Under the pieces are notes generated by a model. The model saw only the letters and a program-made list of their open reading frames with translations, was not told the origin of the DNA and did no database searches. The position numbers were made by a program, and so were the translations under genes. This document shows positions 1 through 28,261 of a stretch of 32,000 nucleotides of DNA, piece after piece. The stretch lies in the NCBI GenBank assembly GCA_963708295.1, contig CAVPSJ010000014.1, positions 319,935 to 351,934 of the forward strand, in the 5' to 3' direction. Within the stretch, counting starts at the first letter, position 1. Each line of letters starts with the position of its first letter. The stretch is from an uncultured delta proteobacterium. GTDB taxonomy: Bacteria > Desulfobacterota > BSN033 > UBA1163.

Positions 1-484
1 GGAAGGACAGAGCGCCCTTGGCGTGTCCGGGTGTTTCAAGAACCCTGAGGTCCTTTCCCTTTTCCCAAGAGATGGTCTCTCCATCCTTCAAATCCAGATC
101 CACAGGAACCGAGCCTTCGACGAGCTCAAAGAAGTTGAGGATGGGCCTCTCACGGTACTGTCTCTCCACATCCTCTATCCATGGCTTCTCGGCAGAGTGA
201 GCCCCGAAGGAGGCCGGGGAGATTTTTTTTATGGCCAGACATCCACCGATATGATCCGGGTGAGCGTGGGTTAGGAGGACCAGAGAAATTTCATCCGGAG
301 ATCGGCCTATTTCTTTCAAGTAACCCTGGAGAAGGAGGCTTGTCGAAGAAACCCCGGTATCGATGAGGCAGATCTTATCTCCTATCAGGAGGTAGGAATA
401 AACCGATCGGTCCGCATATTGGCCTTCACCAAGAGCCAATCGAAAAGGATGTTTAAATGCATGGATCGTTTCCGTAATCCTCAT
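1..484 (-). CDS. MBL-fold metallo-hydrolase (N-terminal part only; gene runs off the left edge)
   Basis: Absent from the ORF track because there is no stop inside the window. Manual minus-strand translation from the ATG at 484 gives MRITETIHAFKHPFRLALGEGQYADRSVYSYLLIGDKICLIDTGVSS...LVLLTHAHPDHIGGCLAI...RVLETPGHAKGALSF. It carries the HxHxDH zinc motif (THAHPDH). Its ATG overlaps the TGA of the upstream gene (ATGA at 481-484). Confidence 0.75.
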   Translation of the reverse strand, partial: MRITETIHAFKHPFRLALGEGQYADRSVYSYLLIGDKICLIDTGVSSTSLLLQGYLKEIGRSPDEISLVLLTHAHPDHIGGCLAIKKISPASFGAHSAEKPWIEDVERQYRERPILNFFELVEGSVPVDLDLKDGETISWEKGKDLRVLETPGHAKGALSF

Positions 485-1743: not shown

Positions 1744-1777
1744 CGCGGCATTCGATAAAATGGAAGGTAGGGTAGGT

Positions 1778-2473
1778 TCACACTCCTAAATAATGTTCTT
1801 TGGTCTTACGATCTTCCCAGAGTTCTTTGGGCGTTGAAGAGTGGACAATTTTCCCCTTGCTCATCACGTGGGTATAGTCTGCGAATTTGATGGCAAAGGA
1901 GAGGTTCTGTTCAACAAGAAAGATGGACAACCCTTCCTCTTTGAGCCGTCGGATGGCGTCCCCGACTTCTCGGACCAGAACCGGCGCCAATCCCTCTGTA
2001 GGTTCATCCATGAGTAGAAAGACGGGGTTGGATATCAATGCCCTGGCGATGGCCAACATCTGTTGTTCCCCGCCGCTCAGTTCGTTCCCCCGGTGGTGCC
2101 CCCTTTCCTTGAGACGGGGAAAAAGAGCGAAGACCTTCTCGAAATTCCATGCCTGGCTGCCAGCACCCCGTGAGGCAATCGCCAGGTTTTCTTTCACCGT
2201 CAATGACGGGAAGATCCGCCGGCCTTGAGGAACGAGGCCTATCTGCATGCGGACGATCTTGTAAGCAGCCACGTGAGCGATGTCCTTCCCATTGAACAGG
2301 ATTTGACCTCGCCGGGGCGGGGTGAATCCGACGATGGATCGAATCAGGGTTGTCTTCCCCACTCCATTTCGCCCCAGTAGGGCGACAACCGTTTCTTTCC
2401 CGACCTCCAGACTAACCCCCTGGAGGACATAACTATCGCCGTAATAAGTATGAATATCCACAATCTTGAGCAT
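1778..2473 (-). CDS. Branched-chain-amino-acid-type ABC transporter ATPase (LivF-like)
   Basis: Walker A GRNGVGKTT, signature LSGGEQQML and Walker B LLMDEP. The track ORF (to 2548) overlaps the upstream gene. The ATG at 2473 (MLKIVDIHTYYG) lies 4 nt after the LivG-like stop and is the likely start. Confidence 0.9.
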   Translation of the reverse strand: MLKIVDIHTYYGDSYVLQGVSLEVGKETVVALLGRNGVGKTTLIRSIVGFTPPRRGQILFNGKDIAHVAAYKIVRMQIGLVPQGRRIFPSLTVKENLAIASRGAGSQAWNFEKVFALFPRLKERGHHRGNELSGGEQQMLAIARALISNPVFLLMDEPTEGLAPVLVREVGDAIRRLKEEGLSIFLVEQNLSFAIKFADYTHVMSKGKIVHSSTPKELWEDRKTKEHYLGV

Positions 2474-2477
2474 AAAA

Positions 2478-3296
2478 CTACTCCGAGCCCAAATAGATCT
2501 CCTGCACGGTCGGATTATTCTTGATCGCTTCCTTTGTGCCTTCGGCAAGAAATTTTCCCTGGTAGAGGACGGTGATCCGTTCGGCGAACTCGAAGGCCAC
2601 GTCCATATCGTGTTCGATCAGCAGGATCGTAATGGACGGATCGAGTTTCTTGAGCAAGAGGGTTAAGGCATGGGTTTCAGCGGAGGAGAGCCCGGCCGCG
2701 GGTTCGTCCAGGAGGAGAAGGCGAGGCTTTTCGGCAAGAGCCAGAGACACTTCGATCTGTCTTTGATCTCCGTGAGAAAGGTTCTTGACCAATTCGTTTC
2801 GCTTCTCCCATAAATCAAACTCTTTCAAAAGGTCGTTGCACCGATCCATGAGGCGATGATAGGAAGAAAGCGGTCGGAACATCACAAATTTCGTCCGAAC
2901 CAGAGCCTGGCAGGCCATGAGAATATTGTCCAATACGGTTAGGTTCGGAAAGAGATTGGTGACCTGATAGGTTCTTGCGATTCCCAGAGCTGCACGACGG
3001 TAGGAAGGTAACCTGGTAACATCCTTCTCAAAATAGAGGATCCGTCCCCCACTTGAAGGATAGACACCGCTGATAAGATTAAAGAGGGTCGTTTTCCCGG
3101 CGCCATTCGGCCCCATCAGGACTCGCCTCTCTCCCGGTTCAATCCTCAAATTGACTCCGTCCACAGCTCGAAGGCCGCCGAAGTCCTTTGTGAGATCCTC
3201 AACGAGCAGGCAGGGAGTCCCGTCCTTCGCAGATAGAACACACTCCCTTCCGTTTTCTGTCTGAACGACTGCCATGAATTTTGACTCTTCGTCCAT
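2478..3296 (-). CDS. Branched-chain-amino-acid-type ABC transporter ATPase (LivG-like)
   Basis: Walker A GPNGAGKTT, signature LSHGDQRQ and Walker B LLLDEPAAGL, with a LivG-type C-terminus. The start could instead be the ATG at 3275. Confidence 0.9.
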   Translation of the reverse strand: MDEESKFMAVVQTENGRECVLSAKDGTPCLLVEDLTKDFGGLRAVDGVNLRIEPGERRVLMGPNGAGKTTLFNLISGVYPSSGGRILYFEKDVTRLPSYRRAALGIARTYQVTNLFPNLTVLDNILMACQALVRTKFVMFRPLSSYHRLMDRCNDLLKEFDLWEKRNELVKNLSHGDQRQIEVSLALAEKPRLLLLDEPAAGLSSAETHALTLLLKKLDPSITILLIEHDMDVAFEFAERITVLYQGKFLAEGTKEAIKNNPTVQEIYLGSE

Positions 3297-3407
3297 TTCT
3301 CGGTTATTCCACGTTGAAGGCCTGTCTACTCCTCCGACATTTCTCAGAGAGAATGGAGGGCTTTACTTTCTCCTATCTTTGGGAGTGATGACTCTACCTA
3401 ACCATTC

Positions 3408-3500
3408 CCCCTCCCTTGGCGGGAGGGGATGAAGGGGAGGGGGCTGAGATTTCTTATGTCCGCCCTCACCCTGCTAACCCTCCCCCGTCAAGGGGGAGGG
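3408..3500. repeat. Two G/C-tract hairpin repeats (REP-like) in the SBP-A / livG-like gap
   Basis: CCCCTCCC-TTGGC-GGGAGGGG (3408-3428) and CCCTCCCCC-GTCAA-GGGGGAGGG (3478-3500). The same stem type and the same GTCAA loop recur at 14727-14747. Confidence 0.6.
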
Positions 3501-3529
3501 TGCATTGAGTGAATTCCAAATATCTTTGG

Positions 3530-4774
3530 TTACGGTTTCAGCGGAGGATATTCACGCGAATAGACAGGCTGCTTCAAAAACTCCTCGGGTTTGTACTTCC
3601 AGAACTGCGAAACGTTGGGATAAGTATAGATTACCTTGTTCTGAAGCTCTCCTCCTACCCTTTCCACCTTTCGGATGTACACGCTTTGAATCGGATTCCC
3701 ATAAGCGTCCAATTTAAATGCCCCACGAGGAACATCCTTGAGCTCTACCTTTCTCAGAGCCTCCATGAACTTGGGCCTATTCTCGACATCGCCATTAACG
3801 GCCTTGATCGCTTCCACAATCCATTTGGCTCCCGTATAGGTTCCCTCCGAATAGTAGGAAGCAGCCTTCTTGGCCTTTTCGCGGTAAGCCTTCACGAATT
3901 TTTTGTTGGCCGGATTATCCAAAGCCTCGCTGTAATGCAGGGCGGTGATAACACCGATCGCTTCATCCCCCATCTGAGGAAGGGCATGCTCGTCGGTGGT
4001 CGTCCCTCCTCCAATCAATGGGATTTTTCCCTTCAGGCCAAATTCCTGATATTGCTTAACGAGCTGGAGTGTTGTGCGACCCGTAAACATAGCATAAACC
4101 CCATCCGCCTCCTTTGAAATCTGCGACAGGTAGGGGCTGAAGTCCTGAACCGTCAAAGGAGTCCAGATCTTCTGAACAATCTTCCCTCCTGCTTCTTCAA
4201 AGGTCTTCTGGAACCCCCCCACATTCTCCCATCCGAAGGCATAGTCAAGGGCTATCACTGCGATCTTCCTGAACTTGAGGGTATTATAGACATACTCCCC
4301 GAAGGGGTGGTTTGGCTGGCTGCTGTTCCATCCCGTGCGGACAATCCATTTGGCTCGCTGCCGCTGGGTCAAATCATCCGGAGCCATGATCGGATAGGTC
4401 ATCGGAATCTCCTTGGAGTCAATGTAGGGCATGAGGGCATAACCGGTGGAAGCCATCAACCCCCCAGACATGACATGGACCCCATCCTTCTCAACCAATT
4501 TTCTCGTCTTCGTGAGGCCCGTCGCCGGAACAGCCTCATCGTCCTCAACGATGAGCTCAATCTTGCGGCCCGCTGCCTGGTATCCGATCTCTTCAAGGGC
4601 GAGTTCGATCCCCGCCAGCATGTCCTTTCCATTGGCTGCCATCCCGCCGGAAAGAGGCGAGATGAAGCCAATCTTGATCGGGCCTTTGGCCTGTGCCCAC
4701 GAGGTGACGGGGTTAAATGCGATTAAACTAACTATAGCCACAACACAAAATACCAAAACGAAAACCTTTTTCAT
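3530..4774 (-). CDS. ABC transporter substrate-binding protein, LivK / Peripla_BP_6 type (SBP-A)
   Basis: 414 aa with an N-terminal signal peptide (MKKVFVLVFCVVAIVSLIAF...AQA). The IKIGFISPLSGGMAANGKDM motif is typical of the Leu/Ile/Val-binding family. It is a paralogue of 7686-8930. Confidence 0.9.
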   Translation of the reverse strand: MKKVFVLVFCVVAIVSLIAFNPVTSWAQAKGPIKIGFISPLSGGMAANGKDMLAGIELALEEIGYQAAGRKIELIVEDDEAVPATGLTKTRKLVEKDGVHVMSGGLMASTGYALMPYIDSKEIPMTYPIMAPDDLTQRQRAKWIVRTGWNSSQPNHPFGEYVYNTLKFRKIAVIALDYAFGWENVGGFQKTFEEAGGKIVQKIWTPLTVQDFSPYLSQISKEADGVYAMFTGRTTLQLVKQYQEFGLKGKIPLIGGGTTTDEHALPQMGDEAIGVITALHYSEALDNPANKKFVKAYREKAKKAASYYSEGTYTGAKWIVEAIKAVNGDVENRPKFMEALRKVELKDVPRGAFKLDAYGNPIQSVYIRKVERVGGELQNKVIYTYPNVSQFWKYKPEEFLKQPVYSREYPPLKP

Positions 4775-4828
4775 AAATTCCTCCCTTCTTTTTGATCAGA
4801 TGATATTACGTAAAAAGTAGCTTCCAAA

Positions 4829-4868
4829 TCCCCCCATCCCCCCTTTGCTAAAGGGGGGTAAAGGGGGA
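4829..4868. repeat. G/C-tract hairpin repeat
   Basis: CCCCCCTTT-GCT-AAAGGGGGG (4838-4858), nested in an outer TCCCCC/GGGGGA pairing. It sits immediately 3' of the TIM-barrel gene stop (4869). Confidence 0.5.
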
Positions 4869-5726
4869 TTACCGTTTTTTTTCGGGAAGCTGAATGTTTT
4901 TGAAGCCCCTGACCGCTTCGGTAATCGATTTCTCAACAGGAATTCGTTCGGCCGTTGATCCTCCCACGTACCCGTCTAGCCCCTTCACCTTAGATAAGAG
5001 ATAGTTTATGTCCTGAGGGGTCTCCGCTGCCCCTCCGTGGCAGGTTACAATCGTCTCGGGTTTTTTCTTCTTCACTCTGTCGATGATCGCCTGGATGAGG
5101 TTTGACATGTCATCCAGGGAGGTCACGGTCTTGGATCCGATAGAGCCTCCGCTGGTGTTTCCCCCGTGAGCAATGATGTTATCGCATCCCGCTTCCAGCA
5201 TTTTCTGCGCTTCTTCCGGCGTGGTGCAAAAGGCCTTTGTATAGAGCCCTTTTCGATGGGCGATTCCGATCATTTCGACCTCTTTATGATACGTCACCCC
5301 TGTTTCCTCCAGGGTCCTTCGGAAATTCCCGTCGATCAACGCCAGGGTCGGACAATTCAGGATTCCTGAAAAGCCGGCGGCGATGATCTCATCCAAGAAG
5401 GCGTCCATGTTTCGCGTGGGATCGGCCCCCAGAAGGCCCGCCAAGACCGGGGTATTCTTAATCACGGGGATGATGTCCCTTTTTCCCAGCTCGAGCGTGA
5501 CGGCATTGGCATCTGCAATCGACAAATAACCTGCCATGGAAGAGAGACCTGCCATCCGGAACCTTGCCAGGATGTGGGTGGTAATCATATCGGCACCGCC
5601 TGCCTCGGCAAATTTGGCAGAGATTCCCGTGCCGGCAAAGGCATCGAAAAGGGCGTGGCCCTTCTCAACCTCGGCCTTGAATCTGTCGATGATCTCCTGT
5701 CTCGTAAACTTCTTTACCATATCCAT
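4869..5726 (-). CDS. Phosphoenolpyruvate-hydrolase-like TIM-barrel protein (PEP_hydrolase family, Tm-1 C-terminal-half homologue)
   Basis: 285 aa. FTRQEIIDRFKAEV..GAGTGISAKFAEAGGADMI..RFRMAG..GY....ANA...L......PV.K.TPVLAG..G.DP...MD.FL.E....GFSG..N.PT..LIDG.FR..LEETG and CHGG matches the family closely. The start may be the ATG at 5720, which has better SD spacing. Confidence 0.85.
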   Translation of the reverse strand: MDMVKKFTRQEIIDRFKAEVEKGHALFDAFAGTGISAKFAEAGGADMITTHILARFRMAGLSSMAGYLSIADANAVTLELGKRDIIPVIKNTPVLAGLLGADPTRNMDAFLDEIIAAGFSGILNCPTLALIDGNFRRTLEETGVTYHKEVEMIGIAHRKGLYTKAFCTTPEEAQKMLEAGCDNIIAHGGNTSGGSIGSKTVTSLDDMSNLIQAIIDRVKKKKPETIVTCHGGAAETPQDINYLLSKVKGLDGYVGGSTAERIPVEKSITEAVRGFKNIQLPEKKR

Positions 5727-5733
5727 TCCTTTC

Positions 5734-6711
5734 TCAGCCTGTCTCTTCCGCCTGGGGTCTCTTCCGGCCCCCTTTGAGCCAATCTTTGAGAAGGTTCATG
5801 AGTCCCTGAGGGGCATAGAGGATGGTGAGGATATAGATCGTTCCCAGGATGAGAAGCCAGCGCTGCGTATAGGCACTGATAAAGTTCTTGAGGAAAACAA
5901 TGATACCCGCACCCAGGGCCGGCCCGATCAGGGTTCCCGGGCCACCCAGGATGACCATCAGGATAATTTCGATCGATGCGGTCAGATCCATGTTGTAGGG
6001 ACTGATGAAACCATCGAAATAAGCCCAGAGGGCTCCTGCAACGCCTCCGAAGGCCGATGCAGAAACATAGCTCAAGTACTTATGGAGCCAGGTATGATAA
6101 CCCAGAACGCGCATGCGGGATTCACTCTCCCGAACCCCCTTGAGGCTGTGACCGAAAGGAGACCGGACGTAAATCGCCATCAGGAAGAGGCAGACCAGAA
6201 AGAAAACGAGAATGAAATAATAGAATGTGAGAGGGTCCTTCAAGGAGATCGGCAAGCCCAGATCCGGCCTGGGAATTCCGGAGATGCCGTTGTCACCGCC
6301 GGTCATATTGACCCAGCGGAAGGCAAGGCCCCAGAGGGTCATCCCCAGCGCCAGCGTGATAATCAAAAAATAGACGCCCGTCGCATGGGCCACGAGGAAT
6401 CCGAAGATCATACTGATCACTGTTGCCACGACTACCCCGCTGACAAAGCAGGTTAGAAACCCCATCTTATACCGGGTTGCAAGAACAGCAACCACATACG
6501 CCGAAGATCCAAAAAAGCCTGCATGACCGAAGGAGGACAGCCCCGTGTATCCTATCAGGATGTCCAGACTCATGGCCAGGATGCCATAGATGAGCATCTG
6601 AGTGAAGAGTGTGATCCAATAAGAGGTATAAAACGGCGGCATGACCACCAGGATGAAAAAAGCAAGGATGAGACCGATGATTTTGGTTTTTGAGGCCAGA
6701 GAATCTTTCAT
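5734..6711 (-). CDS. Branched-chain-amino-acid-type ABC permease (LivM-like)
   Basis: Polytopic membrane protein. The track ORF (to 6804) overlaps the LivH-like gene. The ATG at 6711 (MKDSLASKTKIIGLILAFF) lies 4 nt after the LivH-like stop. Confidence 0.85.
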   Translation of the reverse strand: MKDSLASKTKIIGLILAFFILVVMPPFYTSYWITLFTQMLIYGILAMSLDILIGYTGLSSFGHAGFFGSSAYVVAVLATRYKMGFLTCFVSGVVVATVISMIFGFLVAHATGVYFLIITLALGMTLWGLAFRWVNMTGGDNGISGIPRPDLGLPISLKDPLTFYYFILVFFLVCLFLMAIYVRSPFGHSLKGVRESESRMRVLGYHTWLHKYLSYVSASAFGGVAGALWAYFDGFISPYNMDLTASIEIILMVILGGPGTLIGPALGAGIIVFLKNFISAYTQRWLLILGTIYILTILYAPQGLMNLLKDWLKGGRKRPQAEETG

Positions 6712-6715
6712 CTTT

Positions 6716-7573
6716 CTATTCTTTCCCGAATAGCCCGGTGGGCTTGAAAGCCACGATAAGAGCCATGGGAGCAAACAACGTGAAATAGGAGAGTTCGGGG
6801 ACAAGGGCCTTCCCGAAGTTGTCGATCAGGCCGACCAGGATGCTCCCCACTGCGGAACCTTTTAGGCTTCCCCTCCCGCCTACGATCACGACGACGAAGC
6901 CCAAAGAAAGGAGCTCGAAATCCAACCCCGGATACACTCCGAAGATGGGGCCACCGATGACCCCACCGAAGGCAGCCAAAAAGGCCCCTAAACCAAACAT
7001 GCATCCCGAGATCAGAGGAACGTTGAGACCCACTCCGCTCGCCATTTCGTGATCATCCACTGCCGCCCGCAACTTGGCCCCAACGAGCGTTTTATCGTTG
7101 AAGAGCCATAGGGCGATGGCGACGAGAGCAGCCACGACGATAACGAAGAGGCGATAGACCGGAAATACGACTTGATAGATTTGCGTGGATCCTCTCAAGA
7201 ATTCAGGGGAAGGAAGCGTGTAGGGGTCCCCTCCCCAGATCAAAAGTGCCAGGTCACGAAACACCAGGGCAAATCCCAGGGTGATCATCATTTGCGGGAG
7301 CGCCTTCAAAGGAAACTTTCTCAAGAACCCCCGCTCCATGATCAAACCGACCACCCCGACGACCAGGCCTCCGGCAAAGGCCCCGAGAATGAAGCTCTTT
7401 GTGCGCAAGATCACGGAAAGACCGACATAAGCCCCCAGCATAAAATACGATCCATGGGCGATATTGACAATCTTCATCACCCCATAGATGAGAGAGAGCC
7501 CGCTGGCCAGCAAAAAGAGAAGGGCTCCGAAGGAAAGCCCGTTGAGTGTTTGAACCAATAAAAATTGACTCAA
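6716..7573 (-). CDS. Branched-chain-amino-acid-type ABC permease (LivH-like)
   Basis: Polytopic membrane protein. The track start (7624) lies inside a perfect 16 bp hairpin. The TTG at 7573 is preceded by GGGAGA 7 nt upstream and yields an N-terminus (M)SQFLLVQTLNGLSFGALLFL typical of LivH. Confidence 0.85.
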   Translation of the reverse strand: MSQFLLVQTLNGLSFGALLFLLASGLSLIYGVMKIVNIAHGSYFMLGAYVGLSVILRTKSFILGAFAGGLVVGVVGLIMERGFLRKFPLKALPQMMITLGFALVFRDLALLIWGGDPYTLPSPEFLRGSTQIYQVVFPVYRLFVIVVAALVAIALWLFNDKTLVGAKLRAAVDDHEMASGVGLNVPLISGCMFGLGAFLAAFGGVIGGPIFGVYPGLDFELLSLGFVVVIVGGRGSLKGSAVGSILVGLIDNFGKALVPELSYFTLFAPMALIVAFKPTGLFGKE

Positions 7574-7590
7574 GATAAGTTCTCCCGCGA

Positions 7591-7628
7591 GCGGGTGCAA
7601 AATAGGAATGTCCCTATTTTGCACCCGC
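7591..7628 (-). promoter_or_regulatory. Intercistronic stem-loop between SBP-B and the permease genes
   Basis: GCGGGTGCAAAATAGG-AATGTC-CCTATTTTGCACCCGC forms a perfect 16 bp stem with a 6 nt loop. No U-tract follows it on the coding strand, so it is not a canonical terminator. Confidence 0.6.
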
Positions 7629-7685
7629 CATGTTCAAAATCATTACTTGCTCTGTCTTTTCCATTCTGCCCTCGTTGCAAGAGCT

Positions 7686-8930
7686 TCAGGGCTTAACGGG
7701 TGGATATTCACGCGAGTAGACAGGCTGCTTTAGGAACTCCTCGGGTTTAGACTTCCAGAACTGCGAAACATTGGGATAAGTTTGAATCACCGTATTCTGA
7801 AGCTCTCCGCCCGATTTCTCAACTTTCCGGATATAGATGTTCTGAATCGGATTCCCGTAGTCGTCCAGCTTCATTGGCCCGCGAGGAACATCCTTGAGCT
7901 CAACCTTTCTCAAGGCCGCCATCAGCTTCCCTCTGTTCTCTACGTCTCCGTTAATAGACTTGATGGCTTCTACAATCCACCTGGCTCCCGTATAAGTCCC
8001 TTCGGAATAGTAAGAAGCGGCCTTCTTCGCTTTTTCACGGAAGGCCTTGACGAATTTCTTGTTGGCCGGGTTGTCCAGGACTTCGCTGTAATGAAGAGGA
8101 GTGATGATTCCTATGGCCTCATCACCCATTTGGGGGAGGGCATGTTCATCTGTGACCGTCCCTCCGCCGATCAAAGGGACCTTTCCTTTGAGGCCGAATT
8201 CCTGGTATTGTTTGCAGAATTGCATCGTCTGCCGTCCGGAGAAGACCGCGAAAACGGCATCCGCGTCCTTCGAAAACTGAGAGAGGTAGGGGCTGAAATC
8301 CTGGGCGGTCAAAGGGACCCATATTTTTTGAAGGATCTTTCCTCCCGAATCCTCAAAAGCCTTGTGGAAGCCTCCGACGCACTCCCATCCGAAGGCGAAA
8401 TCATATGCGATCACAGCGATCTTCTTGAATTTGAGGACATTATAAGCATATTCTCCAAAGGGCTGATGCGGTTGGCAGCTCGCCCACCCCGTCCGGATAA
8501 TCCACTTGGGGATCTTTCTTTGAGTGATGTCATCGGCAGACATGATCGGGTAGGTCATGGGGATTTCTTTGGAGTCGATATAGGGCGCGAGCGCGTATGC
8601 CGTCGAGGCCATCAGACCCCCTGTCATCAGATGGACTCCGTCTTTTTCAACCAGTTTTCTCGTCTTTGTCAGACCTGTGGCGGGATTCGCCTCGTCGTCC
8701 TCCACCAGGAGTTCGATCTTACGTCCCGCAACTTGATACCCAATCTCCTCAAGGTAGAGCTCGATACCTGTCAACATGTCCTTTCCATTTGCCGCCATGC
8801 CGCCAGAAAGAGGTGAGATATAGCCAATTTTGATCGGGCCCTTGGCTTGAGCGAATGAGGCCGAAGGGCTTACCATAATGAGGCTGACTGCAATGACCAC
8901 CGCAAAAACCGTCCATAACGCTTTTTTCAT
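7686..8930 (-). CDS. ABC transporter substrate-binding protein, LivK / Peripla_BP_6 type (SBP-B)
   Basis: 414 aa with a signal peptide, collinear with SBP-A along its whole length. By eye, roughly four of five residues are identical (not computed). Confidence 0.9.
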   Translation of the reverse strand: MKKALWTVFAVVIAVSLIMVSPSASFAQAKGPIKIGYISPLSGGMAANGKDMLTGIELYLEEIGYQVAGRKIELLVEDDEANPATGLTKTRKLVEKDGVHLMTGGLMASTAYALAPYIDSKEIPMTYPIMSADDITQRKIPKWIIRTGWASCQPHQPFGEYAYNVLKFKKIAVIAYDFAFGWECVGGFHKAFEDSGGKILQKIWVPLTAQDFSPYLSQFSKDADAVFAVFSGRQTMQFCKQYQEFGLKGKVPLIGGGTVTDEHALPQMGDEAIGIITPLHYSEVLDNPANKKFVKAFREKAKKAASYYSEGTYTGARWIVEAIKSINGDVENRGKLMAALRKVELKDVPRGPMKLDDYGNPIQNIYIRKVEKSGGELQNTVIQTYPNVSQFWKSKPEEFLKQPVYSREYPPVKP

Positions 8931-8988
8931 CCTTCCGTTCCTCCTTCCTTAGTTTCTAAATGACCGAATTCTACCCACTCTTCTGCAA

Positions 8989-9036: not shown

Positions 9037-9624
9037 TCATGGCGAGGAAGAGTTTTTTTCCACAAACCTCCGAAGGCTCTTTGGCATCGTGCATTCGGGG
9101 ACGAGCCCGGGTGCGGAAAGAGCCACCTCAACGGCCAGCTCAGCCCCTTTCTTATAAATCTCCCTGCACGAATTCTCCCTGTCGATCTTCTTGTAAAAGG
9201 GCCGAAGCATCGCGCAGCATTTCCCTCCCAGCTCTTCCTGAAACCGGTTGTGGAGATGGGCCGACAAACGGCTGATGCATCCATACCTGGGTCCCACAGG
9301 TCCTGTCCTACCATAGAGGATACCGAGGATCAGGACTCCGGAGGCCAAAGCCCCGCACATACATCCCGTCGGAGTTCCTTCCATTCCTGCTTCGTCAATC
9401 TTCACGGCTCCACCTCCTCCGTGGAATCCGGAGACCATCTTAGGAGGGGCAGGATTAACTTTTAGTTCGAGGATCTCTGCGACCGCAGCGAAGACGGATT
9501 CGCTTCAATGGTATCCCTGCTTACGGTTCAAATTGGCCAGCTGGCCTGCCCTTTTGGCAAGGGCGGCGATTCGGCGGGCCTTGATGCGATTGGCCGCAGG
9601 CGTTGTTTTGATCGGTTGCCTCAC
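9037..9624 (-). CDS. C-GCAxxG-C-C family protein with in-frame TGA (putative selenocysteine at codon 40)
   Basis: The track ORF (9037-9438) starts at MVSGFHGGGG, which is mid-family. Reading the same frame upstream gives GTG(9624)-RQPIKTTPAANRIKARRIAALAKRAGQLANLNRKQGYH-TGA(9507-9505)-SESVFAAVAEILELKVNPAPPK-MVSGFHGGGG...CGALASG...CCAML...C. The TGA sits where the family has its first conserved Cys (G-x-N-C-[AS]-[EQ]-x-V). The GTG overlaps the stop of the M24 gene (GTGA). The total of 588 nt is divisible by 3. Confidence 0.7.
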
Positions 9625-10883
9625 TTCAGCATCTCCTCTTCATACGGAAAGATCGTGAAGACCTCATGCCCCTTATCCGTAATGACCAGGTCCGATTCCA
9701 GGCGGACTGTTTGCTGAAGCAAAGGATGTCCGGCAAAGGTCTCCACGGCAAAATACATATTGGGTTTGATTTCAGCGGGATATTTCAGAGAATAGGCCCT
9801 CGAAATCCACATCCCTTCATAAAGGGTTAGCCCGATGGAATGGGCAAACTGCTGAAGGGTCACGGTTCCGTACTTGTCATCGTCGTAGAGAGGGAACTTT
9901 TCGGCCACATCCTTGCTGGTCTTGCCGGGTTGCATCATTTCAATGGCCGCCTGAAGGGAGTCATAGCATTCCTTATACAGGTCCTTTTCCTTCGGGGTTG
10001 GCTTTCCTTCGACCTTCCAGCAGCGCACATAGTCCACGAAATATCCGGAGGGTCCGACGGTATTATTGTCGATAATGATCAGATCTCCTTGACGGATGAT
10101 CTTGTCCGTGGGCCAGCGCCGGTAGGGGCTCGTGTTTCCGCCGGAGGCGACGATAATCTCGTAGACGATTTCGCATCCCTTTTCGTACATGTACTCGATC
10201 ATTTTCCCGGAAAGCTCCCGCTCGGTGATGCCTGGTTTGGCCCACTCATAACGCGCTTTATACGTACAGGCATCTCCAATGGCTGCGGACTGTTTCAAAA
10301 GCTCGATTTCATCCGGTGTTTTGATGACACGGGCAGCGGACATGGCCGGCATGGCGTTCACTACTTTTATCCCCTTCTTCTGAAAGGCGGCAAGCGAAGC
10401 CATATCGAGAGAATCGATTCCGATCTTTTCCTTCTCCACCTTGTGTTCCCGCAGGACTTCGAGAACACTGTCAACCATGCGATCCACCATGTATTCCACG
10501 GCCCCTTCGGACCATCTCCAGGTGATGGCCGGGCGGATCCTTCCTTCCATCCAGGGAAGGTCCATCTTGGCGCAAACAAGGTCGGAGCCGGCCGTTTCGA
10601 AGAGGATGGGCTCTCCCCCTCTCGGAAGGACGGCGTAGCGGATGAAGATGTTATATTTCCAGTTCCCCTGGAAAGAACTGGTCAGATAACGAATGTTCGC
10701 TCCGTCATATACGACCAGAGCCCCCAGATCATGGAGTTCCATCTGCTCCTTGGCTTTCGCCAGGCGGTCTTTCCGGAGCCGTTCAAAATTGACCCTTTCC
10801 TGCCAATCCGCACCCGTCAGGGAATAGACCCTCCGGGCATCGTACTCATGAGGTTTTCCGATAAACGAAATATCCTTTGCCAT
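9621..10883 (-). CDS. M24 family metallohydrolase (creatinase / Xaa-Pro peptidase fold)
   Basis: 420 aa. A creatinase-like N-domain is followed by a pita-bread domain with candidate metal ligands in DLIIIDNN, GYFVDYVRCW, FAHSIGL, FAVETFAG and VRLESDLVIT. Confidence 0.85.
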   Translation of the reverse strand: MAKDISFIGKPHEYDARRVYSLTGADWQERVNFERLRKDRLAKAKEQMELHDLGALVVYDGANIRYLTSSFQGNWKYNIFIRYAVLPRGGEPILFETAGSDLVCAKMDLPWMEGRIRPAITWRWSEGAVEYMVDRMVDSVLEVLREHKVEKEKIGIDSLDMASLAAFQKKGIKVVNAMPAMSAARVIKTPDEIELLKQSAAIGDACTYKARYEWAKPGITERELSGKMIEYMYEKGCEIVYEIIVASGGNTSPYRRWPTDKIIRQGDLIIIDNNTVGPSGYFVDYVRCWKVEGKPTPKEKDLYKECYDSLQAAIEMMQPGKTSKDVAEKFPLYDDDKYGTVTLQQFAHSIGLTLYEGMWISRAYSLKYPAEIKPNMYFAVETFAGHPLLQQTVRLESDLVITDKGHEVFTIFPYEEEMLK

Positions 10884-10937
10884 GTTCGTCCTCCTTCCCT
10901 TGTTCGGTTATTGAAATTTTGAAATCTCTTCTCAGGT

Positions 10938-11761
10938 TTATCTTTCCTTTCGCATCGAAGCCATAAGGGCTTCCTCTTCTTCCAGCATATGCTGTTTCAT
11001 CGCCTCGACTGCTTTCTGGGAGTCTCTCGCCTCTAGGGCGTCGTAGATCTTCTTGTGGGCGGCGAGGGCTTTTTTGGGCGACCAGGGGATGCGGTATATT
11101 TTGGTCTGGCTCTTTCCGAATGAGATTGGCCAGCATGTCCCAGACCAGGATGAGAACCTCGTTCTGTCCGATTTCTGCGATCAGGCGATGGAACCGGATT
11201 CCCGAAGAGATGAAGGCATCCTGATGGTCGATGTTCTTCTTCATTTCCTCGATGCACCACCAGAGGCTTTTCAAAAACGAATCGTTTATCCGTTTGGCGG
11301 CGATGTCCACCATCCCCACCTCGAGCATCCTTCGAGTTTGCCAGAGTTTGACCAGAGTATCCCGCTCGATCTGGAGCCGGGTTCTGAGGGAGATGATTCA
11401 GGGATTCGATATAGGGGAGGAAGTTCACCTCCTTGACATAGATTCCGTCGCCCACTTTGATTTCGATCAGGCCCATGACGTCCAGGATTCGAAGGGCCTC
11501 CCTCAGGGAGTGGCGGCTGATGTGAAATTGCTGCGCCAGGCTCCGTTCGGAAGGGAGGCGGTCTCCGGGGGTGTATTTCTTCCTCAGAATCAACGTCTGA
11601 ATCTGGTCGGCTGCATTTTCGTAGAGCCGAACCCGCCGGATGGGCTTTAACAGAATCTCGCTCTCCGGCTCCGGCTTTTTAGAGGGCGCCGATGGGGGAC
11701 GCGTTGGGAATCGACGGCCGATGACTTGATTCACATCGAACCCTTTCTTTTTTCCTCCCAA
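10938..11761 (-). pseudogene. GntR/FadR-family transcriptional regulator (wHTH + FCD) interrupted by two frameshifts
   Basis: The gene reads in three frames. The wHTH part (..LPSERSLAQQFHISRHSLREALRILDVMGLIEIKVGDGIYV) is in the 11033-11761 frame. The first FCD part (LQIERDTLVKLWQTRRMLEVGMVDIAAKR...FHRLIAEIGQNEVL) is in the 10846-11328 frame. The FCD end (AHKKIYDALEARDSQKAVEAMKQHMLEEEEALMASMRKER*) is in the third frame, with its stop at 10940-10938. The shifts lie near 11385-11397 and 11108-11120. The span is 2 nt longer than a multiple of 3. Confidence 0.8.
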
Positions 11762-11820
11762 GAAGTCACTGAGGGGAGAAGCGCGTTCCGAAGGGTGATC
11801 CTTCGGAAGACGAGGCGGTC

Positions 11821-11951: not shown

Positions 11952-12934
11952 TCAGCCCTTTGTCTTCTTTCGGACCACTTCGTCCCAGTTGATGCTGTAC
12001 GAGGGCTTTCTTCCCTCCAGCACATCGACGGCGTTTTGAGCGGCCCCTTCAGCAAGCTGTGCCACTGCATCCCTGGTTAATGCACCCGTGTGCGGGGTGA
12101 GAATCACATTTTCCATTTGAAAGAACGGATGGGACGTTTCTGGGGGTTCCTTCGCGAAGACATCGAGGCCTGCCCCGGCGATCATTCCCTGCTGAAGGGC
12201 TTCGATCAGTGCCGGTTCATCAATGATCTCCCCCCGTGAGGTGTTGATGAGAAACGCCGTAGGTTTCATCCAGCTCAATTCTTTCTTTCCGATGAGTCTT
12301 TGCGTCTCGCTGCTCAACGGCACGTGGACGGAGAGAAAGTCGGACGTCTTGAACATCTCTTCTCTCTCTTTGGTAAACACAAGACCGGGAAGATGGAGAT
12401 CCTCGGGGTTGAGATAGGGATCGTAGCCCCAGACTTCCAACCCCAGGGGTGGCAGATGTCAGCCACAATTCTGCCGATCCTGCCCAGACCGATGAGGCCG
12501 ACCCTTTTTCCGAAAAGGCCCATGGGGCGATATTCGTACCGTGATTTGAAGTTTCCTTTTCGGACTTCTCTGTTGAGATAGAAGATCTGTTTTGACAGAG
12601 CCAGGATGAGCGTCACGGCAAGCTCTGCAACAAAACGGTCCTGGGGGCCCTTGACGCCGCACACCACGACGCTGGATTCCGTGGCGGCTTCGATGTCTAC
12701 ATTATCGAGTCCTCCTCCGGTCCGGGAGATCACCTCCAGATGGGGTGCTGATTCGATCATCGATCGGGTGACTTTGGTGGCCGTCCGGACGATGAGGCCC
12801 TGGACTTCTTTCAACCGTTGCCCCACCGATTCTCCTGAGGGGTCCGGACTGATCAGGAAGTCCACCTTTCCTTCGAGCACCTTGATGCCGGCTTCATCAA
12901 TGGGTTCTGCCAAGAGTACCTTTTTCAACGTCAA
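11952..12934 (-). pseudogene. D-isomer-specific 2-hydroxyacid dehydrogenase (PGDH-like) interrupted by one frameshift
   Basis: The N-part is ORF 12314-12934 (..VGLIGLGRIGRIVADICHP). The C-part is ORF 11952-12440 (LEVWGYDPY...FLSVHVPL...INTSRGEIID..ALIEALQ.G.IAGAGLDVF..EP......NVILTPH). The junction is at the run CACCCCTGGGG (12441-12450). The span is 1 nt short of a multiple of 3. Confidence 0.8.
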
Positions 12935-12958
12935 CCTCCGGGTCTTATTTGTTACCCT

Positions 12959-13132
12959 CTACAGCAATTGGTCCAGTAACTCCATGAGTTCTGGATCGCC
13001 GCCTGCGGGTGGAGACCAGTTCACATGGATCACCGCCACCCCCTGAATTTGCAGGGCTTCAGCAAAATCTGCCACTCCGATATTGACCGCGATCGGGCCC
13101 TGGTGAAGGAGCTCTTCCAGTTTATTTGGCAC
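12959..13132 (-). CDS. Small conserved-looking ORF (57 aa) translationally coupled to fdrA
   Basis: The GTG at 13132 overlaps the FdrA stop (GTGCCAAATAA). Product: (M)PNKLEELLHQGPIAVNIGVADFAEALQIQGVAVIHVNWSPPAGGDPELMELLDQLL. No family was recognised with certainty. It could instead be a frameshifted C-terminal extension of FdrA. Confidence 0.45.
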   Translation of the reverse strand: MPNKLEELLHQGPIAVNIGVADFAEALQIQGVAVIHVNWSPPAGGDPELMELLDQLL

Positions 13133-14687
13133 GAGTAACCTCCGAAAGACTTGATGCGAGGAGTGCACAAAACTGGGCCGCCTGAGCGCTGCTTGGGAAA
13201 ACGGCGACCCCTGCTTCTTCGAGCACCCTGACCTGCTGCGGAAAGTTCTGGGGGTCTCCTTCTGTTCCGCATATTGAAGCAACGACGCTGAGGGATCCGC
13301 CCCTCTTCTTGGCCGCGGCTTTGGCCTCCTGGATTGCCGAGACCAGCTCGCCAGCCGGGTCGGGGGAAGCATTGAAGCCAAGCACAAAATCGAGAAGAAG
13401 AATTGCCACTTGCGGGTCCTGGCCTTCAGCCAGAATGCGATCACAGCGCAGGCGGGAGTCAATCATGGGATGGGGCTTTCCAACCGTAAAATCATCGGTT
13501 CCCATGTCCACCAGGGTGTGCTCCTCACTTCTCATGGGATCGGCCAATTTCACATTTCCATGGAGCGGGGCGTTCGAGTGGACGACGATGCCTGCGTCTT
13601 GGAGAATCTGCTGGGCCTGGAAGCAAAAGGTGCCGCCGGCGAAGATTCCGCGGAGGTATTGTTGCGCTGGATTCTTATTCACTTGTTCTCTTCCAGCAAG
13701 CTTCTGCAAATTGGATGAATTGGCATCAAAACGCGGCGGAGCGTGACCCGTTACCCTTTGAATGGCCATGGCAGCAGCATCATCCAACGTGCGGGCCGTC
13801 TTATAAGGAGCATCTGCGGAGAGAGACCCTTGTTTGAGCCCCAGGAAACAAGCGACCAGGGGCTTTTGACACTGGCGCATTTTGGGAATGAGACTGGCAA
13901 GCGCCCGTTCTCCGGGGGGCTTGGACAAGATCGTGATGACTTCGGTCTGCGAATCGGAATCGAGGGCGTCTAAGGCGGTCAGGAAGGAGATGCCACCCAC
14001 GGCATTCGAAAGGTCCCGGCTGCCGATTCCTATGGCCTGAGAGATCCCCGAGCCCGCCTGATGGACGAGGGAAGTGAATTCCTGGATCCCTGTGCCGGAA
14101 GCACCGATGACGCCAATGGGGCCGCGACGAACGGCGTTGGCGAAGCCAATTCCCTTGCCGCCGATGATGGCTGTGCCGCAATCAGGACCCATGACCATGA
14201 GGCCATGCTCACGGGCATACTCCTTGAGGGAGATCTCGCTCTCAACAGGGACATTATCACTGAACAGGAATACGTTCAGGCCGTGCTCCAGCGCCTTCCG
14301 GGCTTCTCGGGCAGCATAGAAGCCTGGAACAGAAATAACCGCGAGGTTGGAATAATGTTGCATCGCCATAGCTTCATCAAGAGTGCGGATATCGTCCCTC
14401 GGAGCAGAACCCAAGTCGATCGTTAACCAGCGATCTATGTCCTCAAGCATTGAGGCGAGAGCTTCTTGGCTGTCCGCTTTGACCGCTACAATAAGGTCGC
14501 TGGGTGTTGCTTCCGAAATCTCCTGACCTCTTACTTCAATTTCTTCGAGCAAGACTTTGTTCTTTTCCGTTCCCATCAGAGCCGCCGCCTGCAGAATACC
14601 CTTTTGCTGGGACAGGCGCTTGGCCACCCGCATCAGAAAAACAGAATCATGATATTCGTTCTTTCGGATAACGTATCCCGTCACCAT
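13122..14687 (-). CDS. fdrA: FdrA family protein (succinyl-CoA-synthetase-alpha-like; AllF-type subunit)
   Basis: 521 aa. The N-terminus VIRKNEYHDSVFLMRVAKRL......AALMGTEKNK.LL and the CoA-ligase-like core (GPDCGTAII...GIIGASGTG) are typical of FdrA. SD GGAGA lies 7 nt upstream of the ATG. Confidence 0.85.
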   Translation of the reverse strand: MVTGYVIRKNEYHDSVFLMRVAKRLSQQKGILQAAALMGTEKNKVLLEEIEVRGQEISEATPSDLIVAVKADSQEALASMLEDIDRWLTIDLGSAPRDDIRTLDEAMAMQHYSNLAVISVPGFYAAREARKALEHGLNVFLFSDNVPVESEISLKEYAREHGLMVMGPDCGTAIIGGKGIGFANAVRRGPIGVIGASGTGIQEFTSLVHQAGSGISQAIGIGSRDLSNAVGGISFLTALDALDSDSQTEVITILSKPPGERALASLIPKMRQCQKPLVACFLGLKQGSLSADAPYKTARTLDDAAAMAIQRVTGHAPPRFDANSSNLQKLAGREQVNKNPAQQYLRGIFAGGTFCFQAQQILQDAGIVVHSNAPLHGNVKLADPMRSEEHTLVDMGTDDFTVGKPHPMIDSRLRCDRILAEGQDPQVAILLLDFVLGFNASPDPAGELVSAIQEAKAAAKKRGGSLSVVASICGTEGDPQNFPQQVRVLEEAGVAVFPSSAQAAQFCALLASSLSEVTRAK

Positions 14688-14726
14688 TCTATTTCTCCGG
14701 CTATCCTGACCGACCCTCCCTTGTAT

Positions 14727-14865
14727 CCCCTCCCGTCAAGGGAGGGGGAAATAAATGATTTCCCTCTCCCCTTATCCCTCCTTCCCTCCCTTTACAAAAG
14801 GGAGGAATTCCCCCCCTTTGACAAAGAGAGGTAACCTGCCTGCGCGAAGTCCCGCCTTGCGGGAC
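14727..14865. repeat. Cluster of G/C-tract hairpin repeats in the DUF1116 / fdrA gap
   Basis: CCCCTCCC-GTCAA-GGGAGGGG (14727-14747), CCTCCCTTT-ACA-AAAGGGAGG (14785-14805) and GTCCCGC-CTT-GCGGGAC (14849-14865). Same family as 3408-3500 and 4829-4868. Confidence 0.6.
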
Positions 14866-14966
14866 GAAGGCAAGGGGAGATGCTCTGAAACCTATGTTTT
14901 CTTTATTATGAACTCCTTGGTCATTTCAGGTTCTTCTATTCCCCATTCCGCATTCTGCATTTGCAG

Positions 14967-16232
14967 TTACGATCGGCCCAGCCCGTATTTTCGGCCAAAG
15001 CTCAACAGGGCCTTTTTGAAGCATTCCATTGGAGCGCGGACCAGCCCGGCTCCGATAATGGAATGACCGGGATTCTTATTGGCGATCGCGGTGTCGATGA
15101 TGGGAGCAATTCCTGTCTGGACCACTTTACGTATATCGATACCTACTGGAGCTCCCTGAAAACCAAGCACAGGCATGCGGTAATTGGGACTGGTGCTCAC
15201 CGTGATCTGACGCATTTCCCGGTTATACGCCATCGCCTCCTCGGGCGTGCCACCGACCAGACTCAGGATTCCTGGGGCACCACACAGAACGAGCCCGCCC
15301 CAACCTACGGTCTCCGTAATCGCAGAATCTCCCATATCGGCGCCTGCGTCTTTTTCGCTGTAGCCGGGCAGGTACAGTCCATCCACTTTCGGCGACGGTG
15401 CGGTGAACCATTCATCTCCAAGGCCGCTGACACGGATTCCAAACTCCGTCCCATTCCGTGCCATGGTCACAACGACGGTGCTGTGCTCAATGCCCATTGC
15501 AGGGTCCGCCGAAGCTTTACCCGACGCCATGGAAAGACCAAGGAAAATGAGTTCATGGTTCGTAATATAATTGATCGTACCCACCAGGTGATCTGTTTTG
15601 ACGCCCGTTTCAATCATCGGCGCCACCATTGCATTTGCAAATAGACTTGAGGCAGCCATGGATCGATTATGCAACTCATCCCCCATTTGCAGTGCTTTAG
15701 CAATAATGGGCTTGAGAGGAAGTCCTCCCTTTTGAAGGAGACCTTTTCTGAGCGACGGTGCCCAGACATCTCGCCAGAGGCGCAAGCCCTGTAGAGCCGA
15801 GTCGCTGTAATCGCCGAACTGCTGGCGTCCCTCCACCTGGCGACAGAAAGCCCGATTCGCAAAGGCTTTATTCTCGACGACCCACACGGGCATCGACCAA
15901 GAGATCGTGCCAGCCATTGGGCCGACCGCGTGGTGGTGATGATTGGGTTCAATCTTAATGGCTCCGCTCTCGAGGAGCTTCACTGCCTCCTCTTCGTTCT
16001 TGGCCCAACCTTCGAAAAGAACCACACCGATCATGGCACCCCTCTGGGCACCGCACATGTGCTGCCAATCAATAGGCGGTCCGGAGTGCAGGATCATTCG
16101 ATCTTCAAGACCCGGGATGACTTCTCCTGCGGGTGCAATATCGACCAGGACAGGATCAGCGGCATTGATCCGTCTCACGGTCTCTAAGTTGGCAGCTTCA
16201 ATCTTCTGTTTGATGTCTTCTGCAGGTGTCAA
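14967..16232 (-). CDS. ylbE: DUF1116 protein (YlbE / AllG-type subunit)
   Basis: The N-terminus ..IEAANLETVRRINAADPVLVDIAPAGEVIPGLEDRMILHSGPPIDW is typical of DUF1116. The track start is the TTG at 16271. The TTG at 16232 has a strong SD (GGAGGA 5 nt upstream) and is preferred. Confidence 0.85.
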   Translation of the reverse strand: MTPAEDIKQKIEAANLETVRRINAADPVLVDIAPAGEVIPGLEDRMILHSGPPIDWQHMCGAQRGAMIGVVLFEGWAKNEEEAVKLLESGAIKIEPNHHHHAVGPMAGTISWSMPVWVVENKAFANRAFCRQVEGRQQFGDYSDSALQGLRLWRDVWAPSLRKGLLQKGGLPLKPIIAKALQMGDELHNRSMAASSLFANAMVAPMIETGVKTDHLVGTINYITNHELIFLGLSMASGKASADPAMGIEHSTVVVTMARNGTEFGIRVSGLGDEWFTAPSPKVDGLYLPGYSEKDAGADMGDSAITETVGWGGLVLCGAPGILSLVGGTPEEAMAYNREMRQITVSTSPNYRMPVLGFQGAPVGIDIRKVVQTGIAPIIDTAIANKNPGHSIIGAGLVRAPMECFKKALLSFGRKYGLGRS

Positions 16233-16387
16233 CGTTCTCCTCCATTCGTATCTTTGACCTTCTCTTCTCAACCTCGCTTCCTTCCAGAGTCCTATTCCCT
16301 TTGCCTATCAAAGACCGCAATTCTAAAACTTTGAAGATATTCTCGCTCGCCCGACTCTCCCGATTCTTTCATAGCTTCAGGGAGAGA

Positions 16388-17368
16388 TCAGGCAGGAAGC
16401 GCACTCAATTCCCCTTCGACAAAGAGCATGCCGGTCAGCATTCCCGCCAGGATATCCCATCCGGATGTTTCGCCGATCCCGAGTAAGCGCTCGGTTTCTC
16501 CCAGGGTTCGACTTAGGTCTCGGCCATTCAACAATGACACGACCACATCATGGAGCGGTTTGGGTCCGTGGCCGAGGGCATGATCTCTGAGAATCGCATG
16601 GCTGATGGGATGGGTCTGTGTGGACGCCCATTCGATCAGATCCATGACAGGTTCGTCTTCCCAGCGGAAGTGCTGAGGGTACGCTGTCTTGAGCGCGTGA
16701 GCGGCGAAGAGCAGACCTCCGAGAAAATCATCTCCTGAAGGCGTCAGGCCCGGACCGAGGCCGACCAGTTCCCTGCTTCTCCGCGCCACCTCCGTCATAT
16801 CGAGGTCCAAACAGGCCGTTGTAAGATCAAGCATGGCATTGCGAGCTTTGGCGAGGAAGGGATCTGCGTTCGAAATCGCCTGCTTCTTGCCGCCCACGAC
16901 CGACGAAATGAGTGAAATCATCCGGCCGAGCCCTTTTGCGTTCCCAAGCCTCGTGACGGCCTCAACCCACTGGCGGATGTGCGCCTGAACGGTAGGGAGC
17001 GGCTCTGCGTTCCCCGGTCCGACGCCGGAGGGCTTCCATTCCGTTGCTGGCTCCAGATCAACGGTTGTTCCCTCCGGAAATCGTATCCACGGACCATCGA
17101 CGAAGAAGTTTTGGCCTACGCTAATAGACCTCGGCCGAAACGAAACCAGAATGCACCGCCTGTGCATGGCCAGCCCTTGCTGTGACATCCACAAAATTTC
17201 TCCGTCTCCGCTGACCAAGTAGACCGATGCAGAAAGAACAGCAAGCACTTTTCCTGAGAAACCATGCTGAGCAAGCAGGCCCTTGGCCCTCGATCCGATC
17301 TGCTTTGCATGATAGAGAAAAGGCTTCTCGTTTTCATTAAGAACAAAACAATCGGCAATAGGCTGCAT
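16388..17368 (-). CDS. ylbF: DUF2877 protein (YlbF / AllH-type subunit)
   Basis: Contains the GLGPGLTPSGDDFLGGLL signature that I associate with DUF2877. Its position next to DUF1116 and FdrA matches the fdrA-ylbE-ylbF arrangement. The ATG at 17368 lies 1 nt after the SBP stop; the track start at 17398 overlaps the SBP gene. Confidence 0.7.
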   Translation of the reverse strand: MQPIADCFVLNENEKPFLYHAKQIGSRAKGLLAQHGFSGKVLAVLSASVYLVSGDGEILWMSQQGLAMHRRCILVSFRPRSISVGQNFFVDGPWIRFPEGTTVDLEPATEWKPSGVGPGNAEPLPTVQAHIRQWVEAVTRLGNAKGLGRMISLISSVVGGKKQAISNADPFLAKARNAMLDLTTACLDLDMTEVARRSRELVGLGPGLTPSGDDFLGGLLFAAHALKTAYPQHFRWEDEPVMDLIEWASTQTHPISHAILRDHALGHGPKPLHDVVVSLLNGRDLSRTLGETERLLGIGETSGWDILAGMLTGMLFVEGELSALPA

Positions 17369-17369
17369 C

Positions 17370-26676: not shown

Positions 26677-26700
26677 TTGTGGTTGCCTTTAAGATTCCCC

Positions 26701-27882: not shown

Positions 27883-27890
27883 AACATCAC

Positions 27891-28232: not shown

Positions 28233-28261
28233 AACTTATCTCCTACAATGGCCCCTTTCTT

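Follow-up and report, generated by a model that had tools for sequence, protein, structure and literature searches.

Is the TGA codon at 9505-9507 a lesion that interrupts a gene, a genuine stop, or a codon read as selenocysteine (Sec), and if it is read as Sec, which RNA signal directs the insertion? The question is raised by a stretch of 32,000 nucleotides from an uncultured delta proteobacterium (positions 319,935 to 351,934 of contig CAVPSJ010000014.1, assembly GCA_963708295.1; hereafter the window), which carries a gene of the C-GCAxxG-C-C family on its minus strand at 9037-9624. An earlier reading, made from the letters alone (hereafter the sequence-only reading), had proposed Sec recoding at this codon and had named two hairpins, either of which could be part of the selenocysteine insertion sequence (SECIS). 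In the present study, we compared the locus with its relatives. Judged from these comparisons, UGA codon 40 is very probably decoded as Sec, which would replace the first conserved Cys of the family, and the hairpin CUGC-GGUC-GCAG is the better-supported candidate for the SECIS.

The TGA codon and the family cysteines

The minus-strand frame that runs from the GTG at 9622-9624 to the stop TGA at 9037-9039 contains a single internal stop, the TGA at 9505-9507. Translation, profile matches and end-to-end alignment with orthologues support a putative selenoprotein gene of 195 codons plus the stop, with the predicted Sec at codon 40, while the conventional open reading frame (ORF) in this frame starts at the ATG at 9438 and has only 133 amino acids. 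The GTG overlaps the TGA stop (9621-9623) of the upstream 420-amino-acid M24-family gene (9621-10883, minus strand) by four nucleotides, GTGA, and an overlap of this kind recurs in other loci. A putative Shine-Dalgarno sequence, GAGGAG (9633-9638, minus strand), is located 8 nt before the GTG, within the end of the M24 gene. The peptide flanking the internal stop is QGYH-TGA-SESVFAAVAEIL, and CGALASG, the CC pair and further Cys residues are encoded downstream of it. The open frame, the GTGA overlap, the downstream signature elements and the positions of the two hairpins (9487-9504 and 9477-9488) had all been described in the sequence-only reading, and every statement that it made about the sequence was confirmed.

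For profile scoring, U was replaced by C in the 195-residue product. The product matched PF09719 (C_GCAxxG_C_C) with 60.1 bits (cut-off 27) over profile positions 1-117 of 118, and TIGR01909 with 54.7 bits (cut-off 47.4). The NCBI name of the latter model is 'C-GCAxxG-C-C family (seleno)protein', which bears out the Sec-type product names mentioned in the sequence-only reading. The 133-amino-acid ORF alone scored 46.2 bits against PF09719 and covered profile positions 30-117 only; it is without the N-terminus of the family, as had been claimed.

The closest full-length homologues (about 203 amino acids, 51-59% identical) have GYHCSESVF at the site of the TGA. A profile of the homologues was run against 1.84 billion cluster representatives, and an alignment was made of 147 diverse members of the family. 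In this alignment (counts are Cys among non-gap residues, in the numbering of the Cys-type homologue P0023), only four Cys columns are near-invariant: C37 (134/135), C84 (142/143), C131 (136/139) and C147 (131/135). The corresponding residues of the window gene, all on the minus strand, are U40 (the TGA at 9505-9507), Cys90 in CGALASG (9355-9357), which is invariant in close homologues, Cys137, the second Cys of the CC pair (9214-9216), and Cys153 (9166-9168). Since the column of U40 is Cys in all but one of the representatives, the TGA falls on the first Cys of the four that define the family, and the proposal that it aligns with the first redox Cys is upheld. The local motif around this Cys, G-[YFL]-[HN]-C-[SA]-E-x-[VI], agrees with the motif G-x-N-C-[AS]-[EQ]-x-V that the sequence-only reading had given for the family. 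The glycine-rich motif around the second Cys is C90-G-A-L-A-S-G96 in the window; the G and A after the Cys are near-invariant across the family, and the column of S95 is occupied by G, A and S in 113, 15 and 12 representatives, respectively. The AlphaFold model of P0023 (predicted local distance difference test score 86, predicted template modelling score 0.83) is mainly helical, and its N-terminal extension forms a long helix. Since neither sequence search nor Foldseek found a solved structural relative, the chemistry of the protein stays 'putative redox-active', as in the Pfam description.

DNA of orthologous loci was drawn from species-representative genomes and metagenomes. TGA was present at the column in 69 of the 71 loci with a readable motif, the window included, and neither TAA nor TAG was found in any of them; such retention at one column is far beyond chance. 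The two exceptions have TGC (in a Methylomirabilis metagenome-assembled genome, MAG) and TGT, and together with three further loci fetched as controls, five Cys-type loci (TGC or TGT) were available. The orthologues align end to end with the window gene, with up to 93% identity. The genome records with the TGA are six in number, all of them MAGs, and their labels are Thermodesulfobacteriota, 'delta proteobacterium', Deltaproteobacteria or Syntrophaceae. TGA was also found in four more divergent loci, namely L078 and the three representatives of a distant subfamily, in which the gene calls are truncated at MA[ST][GA]FHGGGG and G[FY]H-TGA-SESVF lies upstream. Because the distant subfamily shares the TGA at this column, Sec at the first Cys appears to be old and widespread in the C-GCAxxG-C-C family. 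The members of the distant subfamily (L082, about 1830-2462; L083; L084) have an insert of about 40 residues before the CGAxxG motif, and the neighbours of the L082 gene are a NosL-family gene and PhoU/phosphate-transporter genes of the ATP-binding cassette (ABC) type, with no M24 gene.

The ratio of nonsynonymous to synonymous substitution rates (dN/dS) was 0.21 upstream of the TGA (26 codons) and 0.13, 0.20 and 0.15 in three downstream segments, and third-position entropy was higher than first- and second-position entropy on both sides. Both flanks of the TGA are translated in one frame under purifying selection. Furthermore, the start is conserved: past the upstream in-frame stop, 59 loci have GTGA or ATGA as their first start codon, located 32-40 codons before the UGA.

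Two candidate hairpins for the SECIS

Positions on the mRNA are numbered here with the U of the UGA as +1, so that the window coordinate is 9508 minus n. The best-supported SECIS core is UC-G-CUGC[GGUC]GCAG-A-GA at +17 to +34 (9474-9491, minus strand), which is favoured by sequence constraint, covariation and RNAalifold. It consists of a 4-bp upper stem, a G.A mismatch, which is U-A or G-C elsewhere, and two more pairs. Within it, CUGC-GGUC-GCAG occupies 9477-9488, and the GGUC tetraloop (9481-9484, +24 to +27) is located 20 nt after the UGA. The first hairpin, AGCGAA-UCCGUC-UUCGCU (9487-9504, minus strand), overlaps the stem of the core.

Among 63 distinct Sec-type sequences, third-position entropy was 1-1.9 bits at most sites on both sides, while at +18, +21, +24, +27 and +30 it was 0.28, 0.45, 0, 0 and 0.45 bits, respectively. 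Four of these five frozen sites are four-fold-degenerate, in codons for Ala, Ala, Val and Ala. The synonymous rate (dS) was 0.55 at +4 to +33 and 0.93-1.40 in the flanks. Thus, there is constraint at the RNA level, and it is centred on CUGC-GGUC-GCAG.

Both hairpins were compared on an alignment of 60 sequences, with 500 shuffles for the covariation score. In the GGUC hairpin (pairs 17-34 to 23-28), changes on both sides were observed in three pairs (14 cells). None of the 500 shuffles reached its score of 0.120, although the covariation comes from few variable positions in related sequences and the shuffle test overstates the significance; slid registers gave 0.002-0.083. Pair 21-30 is U-A in 53 sequences, C-G in 5, U-G in 1 and unpaired in 1, and pair 19-32 is U-A in 12, G-C in 8 and a G.A mismatch in 40, so that compensatory changes occur from U-A to C-G at the former and from U-A to G-C at the latter. 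Unpaired cells numbered 66 of 420, and 65 of them were at pairs 18-33 and 19-32. In the first hairpin (pairs 4-21 to 9-16), no pair and no cell showed changes on both sides, 441 of the 500 shuffles reached its score of 0.081 (slid registers, 0.005-0.086), and 25 of 360 cells were unpaired, spread over three pairs. The conservation of this hairpin is explained by the S-E-S-V-F-A codons, which fix its sequence, and it has no conserved-structure support. Since it has no compensatory change, covaries no better than shuffles, and would place its loop just 6 nt after the UGA, the first hairpin was rejected as the SECIS. The suggestion that either hairpin may be the SECIS is therefore retained for the GGUC hairpin, by its frozen sites and covariation, and dropped for the first one.

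RNAalifold retains the 4-bp core of the GGUC hairpin, and orthologues with UCU...GAG or GCC...GCG have perfect 7-bp stems (z = -2.9 and -2.6). In the five Cys-type genes, position +24 is G, G, G, A and A, position +30 is C, C, C, G and A, and the stem is broken. Residue 49 (+28 to +30) is Ala (GCA or GCG) in the Sec-type genes and Val (GUN) in the Cys-type genes. In the SECIS stem, C29 is the partner of G22, so that this residue may be imposed by the RNA; on this weaker reading, the SECIS would determine the protein sequence, with Ala49 (GCA) required for the stem where the Cys-type proteins have Val. The distant subfamily has CCGC-GGUC-GCGG at the same offset from the UGA. Taken together, the sequences define a compact and well-conserved candidate SECIS signature, YYGC-GGUC-GCRG at +20 to +31, that is common to at least two subfamilies.

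The loop of a bacterial SECIS is located 16-37 nt from the UGA (PMC10778597), and the apical loop is small and contains G (PMC1088965). The GGUC loop, small, G-containing and at 20 nt, agrees with both descriptions, and the loop of the first hairpin, at 6 nt, is outside the published range.

Sec decoding and its alternatives

We propose the following mechanism. Ribosomes would initiate on the GTG within the overlap with the M24 stop codon, and the two genes are probably translationally coupled. When a ribosome reaches UGA-40, the hairpin CUGC-GGUC-GCAG in the coding sequence, with its GGUC at +24 to +27, would lie 20 nt downstream and act as a bacterial SECIS, recruiting SelB with Sec-tRNA(Sec), so that Sec would be inserted and translation would not terminate. 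The selenol would then assume the role of the first Cys in a redox or metal-binding site formed with the conserved Cys positions, four in all. Binding of SelB, the actual insertion of Sec, the translational coupling, and the chemistry of the protein are the steps that we infer.

Besides the limit on the covariation described above, several observations weigh against this interpretation. The GGUC hairpin is weak in the window's own sequence (-6.3 kcal/mol, with the G.A mismatch), the 49-nt region does not exceed its shuffles in stability (z = 0.12), and the minimum free energy structure of the window sequence, folded singly, prefers the competing first hairpin. Folding of 71 nt gave z = -1.09, and single-sequence folding at either length is uninformative as evidence. 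There was no Rfam match in the window at the gathering score, and at E <= 10 the only match within 9300-9650 was a chance one to SNORD35. Rfam includes bacterial SECIS families, and the models of these are clade-specific. According to a review, no single model accommodates every bacterial SECIS element (PMC9312934). As for the decoding machinery, no selA, selB, selD or tRNA-Sec was found within the 32-kb window, the remaining genome not having been searched, and no tRNA was found in the window or in the orthologous loci that were scanned for one. However, the in-frame TGA is kept under selection in about 70 assemblies, and it follows that those organisms should decode it. Thermodesulfobacteriota have been named as one of the groups richest in selenoproteins (PMC13188914). 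When the TGA junctions of the window were scanned for other selenoprotein genes, only noise in non-coding frames was obtained.

One alternative possibility is that the UGA directs insertion of one of the standard amino acids Trp, Gly and Cys independently of the Sec machinery, whether through code reassignment, a suppressor tRNA or near-cognate decoding. In its favour, no gene of the Sec machinery was seen in the window, and one database entry (P0042) is translated with W at this codon; the codon in its DNA is, however, TGA, and the Trp presumably arose because the gene caller had applied an alternative code. Of the 26 confident genes in the window, 12 end in TGA, which makes it the most frequent ordinary stop there; it also ends the M24 gene, and it is the final stop of the selenoprotein gene itself in 42 of 64 loci. 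A reassigned genetic code thus appears to be excluded. Moreover, the codon lies on a catalytic-type Cys column, in the classic pairing of Sec and Cys, and only genes with the TGA have the conserved GGUC hairpin at the distance of a SECIS. Read-through other than by Sec is therefore very improbable, if slightly less so than the other two alternatives.

Another possibility is that the TGA is a true stop, that the product is the 133-residue protein from the ATG at 9438 or from another downstream start, and that the upstream 39 codons form a small ORF or leader. Public gene callers do yield products of this kind (109-152 amino acids), and the short form is still above the Pfam threshold with its 46.2 bits. 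However, the short form has neither the first family Cys nor profile positions 1-29, and the Cys-type homologues are continuous through the site. In addition, purifying selection acts in this same frame on the 23 codons that separate the TGA from the Met. Among the 69 Sec-type loci, the column of this Met is Met in 32, Ile in 32, Leu in 4 and Lys in 1, so that it is not Met in 37, and in 31 loci the stretch from the UGA to SGFHGGGG is free of ATG. Thus, the orthologues do not begin at the downstream Met, and termination at the TGA is very improbable.

Finally, that the TGA arose by faulty sequencing or assembly, or by recent nonsense mutation of what is now a pseudogene, is hardly conceivable: several split genes (GntR/FCD, 2-hydroxyacid dehydrogenase, permease and nitroreductase) do indicate that the assembly or the genome is error-prone, but the identical TGA occurs in 68 other loci of many independent assemblies and is never TAA or TAG, so that a base-call error seems excluded in practice, and the gene aligns end to end with its orthologues with purifying selection on both flanks of the codon. 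As the sequence-only reading had maintained, the TGA is not a lesion like the others in the window. That reading had also listed four observations that would count against Sec (lack of the insertion machinery, a TGA column that does not align with the conserved Cys, reads supporting a Cys codon, and orthologues that begin at the downstream Met); three of the four were examined, and none refutes Sec. Even when added together, the three alternatives have only a small probability, and decoding of UGA-40 as Sec is the interpretation that we adopt below.

Genomic context, annotation and known selenoproteins

The M24-family gene upstream of the selenoprotein gene is its conserved operon partner. The 420-residue product (9621-10883, minus strand) has Peptidase_M24 and Creatinase_N domains, and all of its NCBIfam matches are far below the cut-off, the best being DddP-like. 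The M24 gene adjoins the selenoprotein gene in 60 loci, with 89-100% amino acid identity in almost all, while the identity of the selenoprotein across loci is 48-95%, far below the conservation of the M24 protein. In almost all loci with upstream sequence, the M24 match stops where the extension of the selenoprotein begins. The order recurring in the loci with enough flanking sequence is GntR/FCD, M24, selenoprotein, Liv-type binding protein and permease. The conserved pairing and the 4-nt overlap suggest that the M24 protein and the selenoprotein form a functional pair. A further idea, which we put forward only as a speculation that is more likely wrong than right, is that the selenoprotein is a dedicated redox (or metal- or cofactor-handling) partner of the M24 hydrolase-like protein, and that together they carry out an uncharacterised selenium-dependent step, encoded in a GntR-controlled operon with a Liv-type ABC importer and acting on an amino-acid-like substrate in Thermodesulfobacteriota. 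In three loci (L019, L038 and L064), a second M24 paralogue, about 30% identical, is located downstream of the selenoprotein gene.

Several other genes of the window are split or truncated. The GntR helix-turn-helix (HTH) match (11033-11818) and the FCD domain match (10846-11328), both on the minus strand, are in different frames; the 2-hydroxyacid dehydrogenase gene (11952-12958, minus) is split at about 12314-12458; about 200 N-terminal residues of the BPD_transp_2 permease (18957-20477, minus) are non-matching; and the nitroreductase (25285-25797, minus) has a match over its C-terminal half only. In orthologous loci (e.g. L011), the GntR HTH and FCD matches are directly adjacent, and for this reason the split genes seem to reflect homopolymer errors in the assembly, or else recent decay. 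The nearest genome match (L001) is an 'MFD' MAG, and MFD is a long-read project.

Downstream of the selenoprotein gene, at 481-8948 (minus), two paralogous Liv-type periplasmic binding proteins (3530-4795 and 7686-8948), with very similar N- and C-termini, flank permeases, ATPases and an embedded pair of UPF0261 (481-1785) and PEP_hydrolase-like (4869-5795) genes. At 13122-17449 and 22827-23774 (minus), there is a cluster resembling that of oxamate carbamoyltransferase, with an FdrA/AllF-like protein of the coenzyme A ligase fold, AllG and AllH, and with a carbamate-kinase-like AA_kinase and a Bmp/PnrA-type ABC transporter nearby; this suggests catabolism of oxalurate or purine-derived nitrogen. 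In the region 26338-30348 (minus), a KaiC homologue is encoded at 28585-30348 and KaiB homologues at both 28262-28588 and 26338-26688, with a histidine kinase of PAS and HisKA_3 domains (26701-28053) between the latter two; together they represent a Kai-type module in what is likely a non-photosynthetic anaerobe.

The Sec reading has consequences for annotation. Among the 120 public clusters listed for this protein, the majority have calls of 109-152 amino acids that hold the C-terminal two thirds only, as expected if gene callers stop at the in-frame TGA. More than 100 public database clusters are such fragments, starting after the UGA, and they represent a systematic mis-annotation of the selenoprotein; these entries are without the residue that is most likely catalytic. 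Once the Sec codon is recognised, the full 195-residue protein is recovered, its first defining Cys position included, and the signature YYGC-GGUC-GCRG may be used for re-annotating the family. Furthermore, the conserved pair of M24 and selenoprotein genes provides a functional lead for a family of uncharacterised biochemistry.

Among the nearest systems for comparison are the Cys-type orthologues, such as those of a Candidatus Methylomirabilis sp. (L007/P0120) and of the entries P0022, P0023 and P0099, which are 46-59% identical to the window protein over the full length. They have the same GYHCSESVF motif, N-terminal helix and set of conserved Cys residues, but they have TGC or TGT for TGA and Val for Ala49, positions +24 and +30 are variable, the stem is broken, and no M24 neighbour was found within the available flanking sequence.

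The predicted SECIS may be compared with that of Escherichia coli fdhF. The sequence of the fdhF SECIS was confirmed by a 100% match in 5,419 of 5,426 genomes, under annotated selenocysteine-containing fdhF. Both elements lie within the coding sequence and have the same GGUC tetraloop on a short G+C-rich stem with one irregularity beneath it. The G and U of the loop are the contacts of SelB. Counted from the UGA, the loop in the window (+24 to +27) lies 2 nt beyond the position that it has in fdhF (+22 to +25); the stem is UGCA/UGCA in fdhF and CUGC/GCAG in the window; and the irregularity is a bulged U in the former and a G.A mismatch, or a pair in other loci, in the latter. The long lower helix that encloses the UGA in fdhF is absent from the window, whose hairpin is likened to that of fdhF by sequence and is a predicted ligand of SelB.

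The family was first reported as 'Putative redox protein', with three Sec-containing members from the delta-1 symbiont of Olavius algarvensis (Zhang & Gladyshev 2007, PMC1976440). The C-GCAxxG-C-C family protein has since been listed among the selenoprotein families (PMC9312934), and its selenoproteins have been listed as form 1 and form 2 (PMC13188914). Published sequences are MGD8741185.1 and AASZ01002486 for form 1 and WP_012158890.1 for form 2. The window protein resembles these known members in its matches to PF09719 and TIGR01909, in having Sec in place of a conserved Cys, in the stem-loop after the UGA, and in the host group (delta-proteobacteria, or Thermodesulfobacteriota). The family is thus already established as a selenoprotein family, and the recoding call, although correct, would not surprise a specialist; what is known of Sec decoding itself is unchanged. 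The clade of the window differs from the known members in an N-terminal helix-forming extension of about 38 residues and in a start codon that overlaps an M24-family gene, within a conserved operon of GntR, M24, selenoprotein and ABC transporter genes; we did not come upon a description of this extension or of the M24-overlapping operon. In comparison with these earlier accounts, the new points are modest, namely the compact SECIS signature shared between subfamilies, the conserved coupling with the M24 gene, and the extent of the public mis-annotation.

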